Assembly (NCBI RefSeq): GCF_056712565.1
Contig: NZ_CM160072.1
DNA length: 64,000 nt
Reading direction: 5' to 3' (one strand)
The position numbers were made by a program. Each line of letters begins with the position of its first letter. Position 1 is the first letter of the stretch. Positions 6,001 to 9,000 of the stretch are shown here, in pieces.

Positions 6001-9000
6001 TATTTATCAGAACTGGTGTACGTCCAATACAGGAGGTTGTCGTGCTGGTTCTCAAATGTGCGCTAGCTATTGCGGCTGTAATGGCAATTTATTGTCTTGC
6101 TGTTGTTCTTATGGATCGCCTTTCTGATTGATTTTATATTGGCGAGGTGACGGGAGTTAAGTAGAATTGCTGCGGGTGCTTGAGGCTATCTGCCTCAGGC
6201 ATGAACACCAAAGGCAGATAGAGAAAAGCCCCAGTTAATATTACGCGTCCTGCAAGACGCTTAACATTAATCTGAGGCTCAATCTATGAACGGCAAATCT
6301 AGGTTAGCCTCTTACGTGCCGAAAGGCAAGGAGAAGCAGGCTATGAAGCAGCAAAAGGCGATGTTAATCGCCCTGATCGTCATCTGTTTAACCGTCATAG
6401 TGACGGCACTGGTAACGAGGAAAGACCTCTGCGAGGTACGAATCCGAACCGGCCAGACGGAGGTCGCTGTCTTCACAGTTTACGAACCTGAGGAGTAAGA
6501 GACCCGGCGAGGGAGAAATCCCTCGCCACCTCTGATGTGTCAGGCATCCTCAACGCACCCGCACGTAACCCGCTTCGGCGGGTTTTGTTTTTTCCTGGCA
6601 TTCTGGTTTACAATTCGCACGCCAGCCTGAACAACTGGCACCTGCTGCGCCAGCAGAGACAACCGATGGCGCACGATACCAAATTACACAATTCTGATGA
6701 TTCTGCCGTCTTTGCCAGCAGGCACGGGCGGCGTTCCCGCACTTTCAAATCTGACTGGTTCCAGCATCCCCCATGCACTGAAGAACAGGCCGAGTGGCTA
6801 ATTCAGTGCTACCGCAGACACGGATACGAGATTAAGAAAGCCCTCAGCCTCGATTATCGTCACTGGATAATCTCCGTCAGGCTTCCTTACTCCGAACGAT
6901 CACCGCGTCCGTCCCGCACATTCCAGCAACGCATCTGGAGGTAACGTGCGAGTATTACTTCGACCTGTTCTGGTACCGGAACTCGGGCTGGTGATCGTTA
7001 AGCCGGGCCGTGAATCCATGCCGGTATTCCACAATACCCGGGTACTGGTGGAGCCGGAACCGAAAAGCATGCGTAATCTGCCGTCCGGGGTTGTTCCTGC
7101 CGTTCGCCAGCCGCTAGTGGAAGACAAAACATTGCTGCCGTTTTTCAGTAACGCACGGGTGATTCGTGCTGCTGGTGGTGCTGGTGCATTGTCTGACTGG
7201 CTGTTGCGCCATATTAAATCCTGCCAGTGGCCACACGGCGATTATCATCACAGCGAAACCGTCATTCACCGTTATGGTACCGGCGCAATGGTGTTGTGCT
7301 GGCACTGCGACAACCAGCTGCGTGACCAGACATCCGAATCACTCGAGCAACTTGCTCATCAAAACCTGTCAGCATGGATGATTGACGTCATACTCCATGC
7401 AATGAATGGCTCGCAGGAACGGGAATTATCGCTGGCTGAATTATCCTGGTGGGCGGTCCGCAATCAGGTGGCGGACGCGCTACCGGAAGCGGTATTACGT
7501 CGTTCGCTGGGGTTGCGTGCGGAAAAAATCCGCTCAATGTACCGTGAAAGCGACATCGTACCGGGAGAGCAGACCGCCACCAGCATACTGAAGCAGCGCA
7601 CAAAAAATCTTGCGCCGCTGCCTCACGCCCACCAGCAAAACCCGCCACAGGAAGAGACGGTGGTCAGCATTGCCGTTGATCCTGAGTCTCCGGAATCTTT
7701 CATGAAACGACCTAAACGTCGCCGCTGGGTTAACGAGAAATACACACGCTGGGTGAAGACACAGCCGTGTGCGTGTTGTGGTAAGCCAGCCGACGATCCC
7801 CATCACCTGATTGGTCATGGTCAGGGCGGAATGGGGACAAAATCTCACGATATTTTCACGCTACCGCTGTGTCGGGAGCATCACAACGAGCTTCATGCGG
7901 ATCCTCTGGCGTTCGAAGAAAAGCATGGTTCTCAGGTTGATTTAATTTTTCGTTTTCTTGATCACGCCTTTGCAACTGGCGTGCTTGGGTAAAAGAGGTG
8001 ACTGATGCTCATAGATTTGGTTTTACCTTACCCGCCGACGGTGAACACTTACTGGCGACGCCGTGGCAGCACATATTTTATCTCGGAGGAGGGAAAGCGT
8101 TATCGCCGGGCTGTGGCGCTTATTGTTCGCCAGCAGCGGCTGAAATTAAGCCTGTCCGGAAGGCTGGCGATAAAGGTGATTGCAGAGCCACCGGATAAGC
8201 GTCGTCGCGACCTGGACAATATCCTGAAAGCACCGCTGGATGCGCTGACGCATGCGGGAGTGTTAATGGACGATGAGCAGTTTGATGAAATCAATATCGT
8301 TCGTGGTCAGCCAGTATCTGGTGGACGTATGGGGGTGAAGATTTACCCCATAATGCATGAAGAGCAGGTCAAAAAATGAAACTGGAAGATTTACCGAAAT
8401 ACTACTCCCCAAAATCCCCTGGCCTGACCGATGCATCGGCCTCAACGTCAAAAGATGCGCTGAGTATCACTGATGTGATGGCCGCGCAGGGCATGACACA
8501 GAATCGGGCTGAGATGGGGTTTTCTGCGTTCCTGGGGAAAATGGGCATCAGTATGAATGACAGGGCGCGGGCAACAGAATTACTGGCAGATTATGCACTC
8601 AGTCGGTGCGATCGTGTGGCGGCGTTGAGAAAACTTCCGGCAGAAATAAAACCGGTAGTGATGCGCATTATGGCTTCGTATGCGTTTGAAGATTATGCCC
8701 GTAGCGCGGCGAGCAAAAAACAGTGCCCTTGCTGTCACGGAAAAAAATTTATTGAAAGCGAGGTTTTTACAAACAAGATCCAGTATCCGGATGGTAAGCC
8801 ACCAGTGTGGGCAAAGTGCACAAAAGGCGTGTATCCGTCTTACTGGGAAGAATGGAAAAAAGTCAGGGAGGTGGTAAAAGTTGCCTGTCCGGAGTGTGGC
8901 GGAAAGGGTGAGGTTTCCACCGCCTGTAAGGATTGCCGTGGGCGTGGTGTCGCCATTCATCGTGAAGAGTCGGTAAAACGTGGTATGCCTGTTATCAGAG

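Follow-up and report, generated by a model that had tools for sequence, protein, structure and literature searches.

What does the DUF968 protein encoded beside the Holliday-junction resolvase gene rusA in a lambdoid prophage of Escherichia coli do, and is its Cys/His-rich C-terminus a nuclease? The question is raised by a YdfU-type gene in a 64,000-nucleotide (nt) stretch of contig NZ_CM160072.1 (NCBI RefSeq assembly GCF_056712565.1), which we call the window and in which all coordinates are counted. An earlier note, made from the sequence alone, had described the end of this gene (7700-7992, i.e. amino acids [aa] 252-348 plus the stop codon, position 7700 falling in codon 252) as DUF968-like, with an HNH nuclease or zinc-finger motif and a possible role in recombination or packaging. 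The HNH / His-Me finger fold of aa 245-348 and the residues that define it are strongly supported by a structure model and by sequence comparison. By analogy with characterized relatives, the protein is probably an early-operon DNA nickase or nuclease that acts in recombination or replication and is possibly linked to RecA.

The assignment to DUF968 proved correct. Pfam DUF968 (PF06147) matches aa 160-345 over model positions 1-171 of 171 with 256.8 bits against a cut-off of 27.8 (expectation value [E] 1.4e-76), the PHROG_96 family ‘HNH endonuclease’ matches over the full length (E 7.6e-176), and the identical RefSeq coding sequence, WP_001265108.1, is annotated ‘DUF968 domain-containing protein’. 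The match to HNHc_6 (PF16784), a family of Orf-HNH fusion proteins that includes NM1 Gp16, is borderline: 22.4 bits for the full length and 25.2 bits for the C-domain alone, short of the 26.6-bit cut-off, which the YdfU allele of PPompW exceeds (31.9 bits). Searches of PDB sequences, made with the whole protein, with its C-domain, with a segment of the N-domain and with the profile of our alignment A1, returned chance C2H2 zinc-finger matches (E > 0.3) or none; homology to solved structures is visible only by profile-sequence comparison and fold search. The profile comparisons link the C-domain to YbcO (80%, E 1.4e-5) and to P1 Ref (74.5%, E 2.7e-5), the latter also being its best structural match in the fold search. 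The C-domain is likewise related to Gp16 of Staphylococcus phage NM1 (hhalign 94.5%, E 7.8e-8; BLASTP 39% identity, E 1e-9).

The motifs quoted in the earlier note (C-x-C-C-G-K, D-P-H-H-L and C-R-E-H-H-N-E-L-H) are all present exactly, as C275-A-C-C278-G-K at 7768-7785, D284-P-H286-H287-L at 7795-7809, and a third element that runs from C309 to H317 (Table 1). An AlphaFold2 model built from 36 diverse homologs (mean predicted local distance difference test score [pLDDT] 88.3) has two domains with a disordered linker (227-241, pLDDT <50) between them, and the C-domain begins at about aa 245, a predicted boundary with which the start chosen in the earlier note coincides. Strands 284-287 and 305-308 and helix 310-318 of the model have the beta-beta-alpha-metal topology, i.e. 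the fold that characterizes the HNH / His-Me superfamily. H287 is the final residue of the first strand, and H313 and H317 lie on the helix, where members of the superfamily carry their strand-end histidine and metal ligands, respectively. The pattern of the zinc-finger HNH subclass, C-x-x-C before the first strand and C-x-x-[CH] where the helix starts, can also be recognized in the alignment. We therefore predict that C275, C278, C309 and H312 hold a structural zinc, that H287 is the general base, and that D302, H313 and H317 line the catalytic metal site.

Conservation was evaluated on a homolog set of 3103 cluster representatives (E<=1e-3), from which the 36 homologs of the model had also been drawn, with residues counted among 50%-identity representatives. 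The predicted catalytic residues are kept in nearly all of the complete ones (H287 in 87/92, D302 in 88/89, H313 in 76/85, H317 in 74/81), and D302 is invariant in alignment A1. At the zinc-ligand positions, C275 is kept in 82/85 and C278 in 71/88, position 312 is His in 43 representatives and Cys in 22, and the full pattern CCC[H/C] is found in 51. Approximately 15 representatives that lack two or three of the zinc ligands still keep H287/D302/H313/H317. The C-domain motif is thus far beyond chance, and this pattern of loss and retention suggests that the conserved constraint is catalysis rather than zinc binding. A non-nuclease zinc ribbon is disfavoured because the catalytic tetrad persists where zinc ligands have been lost. 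Two further motifs flank the HNH core, V-D245-x-E-P-P...R-P256-K257 (aa 245-257, 7678-7716; K257 in 76/76 representatives) and W/F-E324-x-x-H-G328-S-Q330 (aa 323-330, 7912-7935); both are family-specific, being absent from Ref, YbcO and Gp16, and perhaps make partner or DNA contacts. In a subgroup of full-length homologs (P0209, P0242 and P0225, the last at L007/L008 4001-5044) the H-H motif is missing, as are other residues of the catalytic set; one member resides in a P1/P7-like element beside the Lpa and C1 repressor genes.

The relative that bears most directly on function is Gp16 (ABF73046.1), for which nickase activity and RecA binding were demonstrated in 2026 (PMC12817073). Gp16 itself exceeds the DUF968 gathering cut-off (29.1 > 27.8 bits), so that the two families cross-match, and both proteins contain C-x-x-C-G-K-P...C-R-E-H-H-N-E-x-H, which includes the C181-H189 string of Gp16. 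All seven residues mutated in Gp16 are conserved in the window protein: zinc ligands C145/C148/C181/H184 correspond to C275/C278/C309/H312, and catalytic H157/H185/H189 to H287/H313/H317. In Gp16, C148A abolishes the phenotype, C181A and H184A abolish toxicity, and H185A and H189A reduce it (PMC12817073). The HNH nuclease or zinc-finger motif suspected in the earlier note thus aligns residue by residue with positions mutated in Gp16. That note had also named the outcomes that would overturn its reading, namely a non-nuclease zinc ribbon or no metal site; the alignment points away from both, because catalytic and zinc residues match those of Gp16 one-to-one and the tetrad is conserved. Like the DUF968 gene, gp16 is an early phage gene, with rusA in the same phage region. 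The window protein differs from the Gp16 family in falling below the HNHc_6 cut-off; RecA binding and nicking are features of Gp16.

Three other proteins of the superfamily serve for comparison. P1 Ref (PDB 3PLW) is an HNH endonuclease that depends on RecA, in which H113 aligns to H287 and C96/C99 to C275/C278; Ref H153 has no clear counterpart in the window protein, and the N-terminal 76 residues of Ref are basic and disordered, while the corresponding part here is a folded 226-aa domain. In YbcO (DLP12/phage 82; PDB 3G27; DUF1364, PF07102), H32 aligns to H287 and D47 to D302, but the protein is a single domain of 96 aa that lacks an N-terminal domain, and at the end of its active-site helix a D stands in place of H (C-x-x-C-H-D-E-I-D). 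We found no functional study of YbcO in the literature. Among these homologs, metal-dependent phosphodiester cleavage is an established activity of Gp16 and Ref. Lambda NinG/Rap (PF05766), a branch-specific endonuclease encoded in the nin region upstream of Q, is also a member of the His-Me superfamily and a plausible functional analogue of the DUF968 protein; it belongs to a different Pfam family, and the two profiles are not significantly similar (hhalign 12% over 13 columns).

This assignment was already known as a prediction, since in Curtis et al. 2014 (PMC4118853) DUF968 is given a zinc-finger HNH motif and its fusions to recombinases are described, as are the Gram-positive ‘DUF968’ proteins that are Orf-HNH fusions, and Jablonska et al. 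2017 (PMC5714182) placed DUF968 and DUF1364/YbcO in His-Me group 7, naming YdfU, noting its RusA and Q neighbours and proposing a role in recombination and repair. The literature of 2014-2017 therefore already contained the HNH assignment, RusA and Q as neighbours, and the hypothesis of a role in recombination. YdfU of the E. coli Qin prophage, also in group 7, shares with the window protein the two-domain length class (~350 aa), the RusA/Q neighbourhood and full DUF968 membership; nothing essential differs between them, and the window allele has a CCCH zinc site.

The N-terminal domain contains a second Cys/His site (Table 1). Its motif, C-Q...[HC]-H...L-C-W-H-[CH]-D-N, has invariant C93 and C118, W119 and D122 conserved in at least 90%, and a conserved N123, and each of the four ligand positions carries either Cys or His throughout the 50%-identity representatives (CHCC in 37, CCCH in 26, CHCH in 11). 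The model places the element on strands 105-110 and 113-118 and helix 119-125. This beta-beta-alpha module has no conserved catalytic His (H108 is variable), and the quartet is probably a structural, non-catalytic zinc site, as judged from the alignment and the model. A fold search of PDB and BFVD with the N-domain gave no match. An Orf/NinB-like N-domain of the RAGNYA type was considered and rejected, with an hhalign probability of 0.1% and no fold similarity either. Comparison of the N-domain with the C-domain (hhalign E 0.047, probability 1%) and of aa 93-160 with the Gp16 HNH domain (BLASTP E 0.026) weakly suggests that the N-terminal module is a degenerate duplicate of the C-terminal HNH unit; the module itself has no Pfam HNH match. 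The N-domain most likely binds a substrate or a partner.

The two domains appear to have partly separate histories. Relative to the YdfU of PPompW and Shiga toxin (Stx) 2a phages (L010, Stx2_14040, locus 2501-3556), identity is 92% over the N-domain and linker and only 60% over the C-domain, with the break at about aa 250; megablast matches to those phages end at nt 748. The zinc site is CCCH in the window allele and CCCC in the PPompW/Stx-phage allele. This pattern suggests that the linker is a recombination joint at which nuclease modules are swapped between phage alleles. The HNH module is also found behind LexA-type or HTH/Phg_2220_C N-termini. Database proteins in which the N-domain appears joined to tail fibre, to tip-attachment J, to portal or to Q (P0143, P0189, P0191, P0243, P0125, P0152) were rejected as real architectures and are best explained as deletion scars of defective prophages or assembly chimeras; some C-domain fusions to truncated Dam/MT-A70 are probably artefacts of the same kind.

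The fusions to LexA-type and helix-turn-helix DNA-binding domains would fit a quite different function, that of a non-catalytic zinc-finger protein that binds DNA and serves as a regulator or as an accessory of transcription or anti-termination beside Q. The clearly non-catalytic Cys/His module of the N-domain would fit it too, as would the database records that name family members ‘transcriptional regulator’ or ‘antitermination protein Q’. We nevertheless regard such a function as quite unlikely, given that H287/D302/H313/H317 show stronger conservation than the zinc ligands and outlast them, and that the homologous domain of Gp16 nicks DNA in vitro (PMC12817073). The ‘Q’ labels, moreover, are misannotations, because the true Q is encoded at 8376-9197. 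Records LR597642.1 (Evi) and LR597641.1 (mEp460_ev081) both label the DUF968 gene ‘Phage antitermination protein Q’, a name that has probably spread from the neighbouring true Q.

Exchange of C-domain alleles at the linker is a pattern known also from conflict genes, and it raises the possibility of a nuclease for host takeover or conflict, which would damage or nick the DNA of the host or of competing phages and plasmids, arrest the host and bias development toward lytic growth, instead of working in phage recombination itself. Gp16 inhibits growth of S. aureus, condenses the nucleoid and raises phage yield (PMC12817073), and P1 Ref increases ciprofloxacin lethality (PMC4713147); both observations would fit such a nuclease. 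The DUF968 gene, however, has no PADLOC or NCBIfam defence-system match, keeps a stable place in the nin/recombination block beside rusA across distant phages, and is carried by thousands of E. coli genomes without obvious cost, which prophage repression could explain. On balance we consider this function unlikely.

The DUF968 gene belongs to a lambdoid prophage of E. coli, and the 3.3-kb block that contains it recurs with 100% identity in the chromosomes of E. coli ATCC 11775 and numerous further strains, e.g., S88 and NU14. Among 5426 complete E. coli genomes, 4828 match the block (window 6000-9300) at least in part and 2387 cover 80% or more of its length, with similar genes present in Stx-converting phages. 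The prophage genes run from repressor, cro, YdaT and a replication block through an AT-rich accessory block and sok/hokD to a 92-aa open reading frame (ORF), DUF968, rusA and Q, followed by a DNA methyltransferase, three transfer RNAs (tRNAs), the lysis genes, a lambda-type Nu1/GpA terminase, and portal, head and tail genes. The earlier note had placed the DUF968 gene beside rusA, which lies directly downstream of it; DUF968, rusA and Q are closely packed, with a 12-nt gap followed by an ATGA overlap, and lie where the delayed-early right operon has its nin region. The distant homologs L004 and L005 (29-36% identity) are likewise directly upstream of Q, with RusA nearby. No homolog of Orf or Rap is encoded in this phage region.

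This position bears on two further explanations. Free-standing phage HNH genes are often mobile, a caution raised in PMC12315714, and the mosaic distribution of DUF968 among lambdoid phages would suit a selfish, homing-type endonuclease that cuts phage genomes lacking the gene; the gene's stable place in the operon and the protein's large conserved N-domain make this very improbable. A packaging-associated HNH protein, also considered in the earlier note, would assist the terminase in the manner of HK97 gp74, as many phage HNH proteins do in general (PMC12817073). This explanation fails almost entirely here and is the one we find hardest to credit, because of the position of the gene and the type of terminase: the gene and the terminase are over 8 kb apart, with Q, the methyltransferase, tRNAs and the lysis cassette between them, the gene belongs to the early operon upstream of Q, and the lambda-type Nu1/GpA enzyme has its own nuclease domain.

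The reading that we prefer, a nickase or nuclease of recombination or replication, can be set out as follows. The protein would be made while the phage replicates and recombines, before late genes turn on, because its gene is part of the early-right (nin) operon, in which it is coupled to rusA and Q. A zinc-stabilized HNH enzyme could then nick or cleave intermediates of recombination or replication (D-loops, forks or RecA-bound DNA, for example), leaving products that RusA and host or phage recombinases would handle. It may be targeted by RecA in the way that Ref and Gp16 are; RecA dependence is predicted because these two closest characterized relatives both work with RecA. From relatives and gene neighbourhood we infer the substrate, a link to RecA and the biological role.

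Several points weigh against this reading. The RecA link is drawn by analogy, and RecA_dep_nuc (PF16786), the Pfam family of Ref, scores only 15.8 bits, below its cut-off of 26.9. RecA binding by Gp16 requires both of its termini, and its N-terminal half is NinB/Orf-like (PMC12817073), whereas the window protein has no Orf/NinB-like domain. The H157A substitution in Gp16, equivalent to H287, did not relieve toxicity (PMC12817073), so residue roles are not fully settled even in Gp16, and the geometry of the metal site in the window protein is derived from alignment to solved or mutated relatives. The homologs P0209, P0225 and P0242 may be inactive, with a different role. Finally, a search of the literature on enterobacterial YdfU-type proteins yielded no functional study, biochemical or genetic, in agreement with the earlier note, which had called the function not established.

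A bolder form of the preferred reading, which we offer tentatively and would not expect to hold in full, is that YdfU-type proteins are nickases guided by RecA (or by single-stranded DNA-binding protein or the fork) that make lesions or process D-loops, with RusA resolving the products, i.e. a ‘cut and resolve’ module in lambdoid phages without Orf and Rap. The N-domain would then be an undescribed zinc-containing fold, serving as a targeting module in place of the Orf/NinB mediator domain of the Gram-positive relatives, and might derive from a degenerate duplicated HNH unit.

Table 1. Coordinates in the window of the DUF968 gene, its predicted domains and sites, and nearby features.
Feature	Coordinates	Strand	Remarks
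Whole gene, YdfU-type DUF968 protein, 348 aa	6946..7992	+	GTG start; stop TAA 7990-7992; from ORF list and sequence
N-terminal domain, aa 1-226	6946..7623	+	alpha/beta; function unknown
Second predicted zinc site, N-domain: C93, H101, C118, C121, then W119/D122/N123	7222..7314	+	beta-beta-alpha element
Flexible Pro/Gln-rich inter-domain linker, aa 227-244	7624..7677	+	pLDDT <50 at 227-241; alignment A1 gap-rich here
C-terminal HNH / His-Me finger nuclease domain (strongly supported), aa 245-348	7678..7989	+	
First predicted zinc knuckle, C275-A-C-C278	7768..7779	+	aligned to Gp16 C145/C148 and Ref C96/C99
H286-H287, end of strand beta1	7801..7806	+	H287 predicted general base
D302, acidic, just before strand beta2 (305-308), where the HNH ‘N’ falls	7849..7851	+	aligned to YbcO D47
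C309-R-E-H312-H313-N-E-L-H317	7870..7896	+	predicted second zinc pair (C309/H312) and helix metal-binding histidines (H313/H317)
ORF, 92 aa, function unknown	6666..6944	+	RefSeq WP_011478175.1; translationally coupled to the DUF968 gene downstream
rusA, Holliday-junction resolvase	8005..8379	+	12 nt 3' of DUF968 gene; Pfam RusA E 2.6e-17; NCBIfam RusA E 3.1e-23; RefSeq
Late-gene antiterminator Q	8376..9197	+	Pfam Antiterm E 2e-49; start overlaps rusA stop (ATGA)
Terminator-like hairpin 3' of Q	9280-9295		
Lambda-type terminase Nu1 and GpA, with GpA_nuclease domain	16167-18639		>8 kb from DUF968 gene

Immediately upstream, the GGAGG Shine-Dalgarno sequence of the DUF968 gene (6937-6941) directly precedes the TAA stop (6942-6944) of the 92-aa ORF. 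That ORF gave no match in Pfam, NCBIfam or PADLOC. It was considered as a conserved partner of DUF968 and rejected, since it is retained (84% identity) only in close relatives such as PPompW, and no counterpart was found upstream of distant DUF968 genes. Further upstream are the hokD toxin gene (6343-6498) and the sok antisense RNA (Rfam sok, 113 bits), together spanning 6174-6498, and a terminator-like hairpin (6567-6584) lies after hokD, ahead of DUF968-rusA-Q.

Two ORFs (370 and 333 aa) lie in the AT-rich block at 3596-5725 (35-42% GC vs ~53% in its neighbours); their only Pfam matches are weak (to the HEPN/RES N-terminal domain, E 2e-4, and to GNAT, E 9e-4), and PADLOC gave none. The block looks like a moron or accessory insertion and possibly encodes an undescribed toxin/defence pair. 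Between Q and the lysis cassette is a block (9770-11384) with the phage DNA methyltransferase (N6_N4_Mtase, E 4e-43), after which come the three tRNA genes (10869-11115) and one copy of the small RNA STnc100 (11194-11384, 136 bits).

To the published assignment of DUF968 our analysis adds the residue-level link to Gp16, Ref as the nearest solved fold, a probable second Cys/His zinc site in a non-Orf N-domain without a fold match, evidence suggesting catalysis as the conserved constraint, and C-domain alleles apparently swapped at the linker. With the 2026 result on Gp16, the label ‘DUF968’ becomes a specific prediction that can be tested in lambdoid phages. A confirmed activity would annotate a very widespread gene of the E. 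coli y-ome, given that the block is matched in most of the complete genomes and has kin in Stx phages, and it might bear on prophage induction, on recombination between Stx phages and, as for P1 Ref, on phage-antibiotic synergy.

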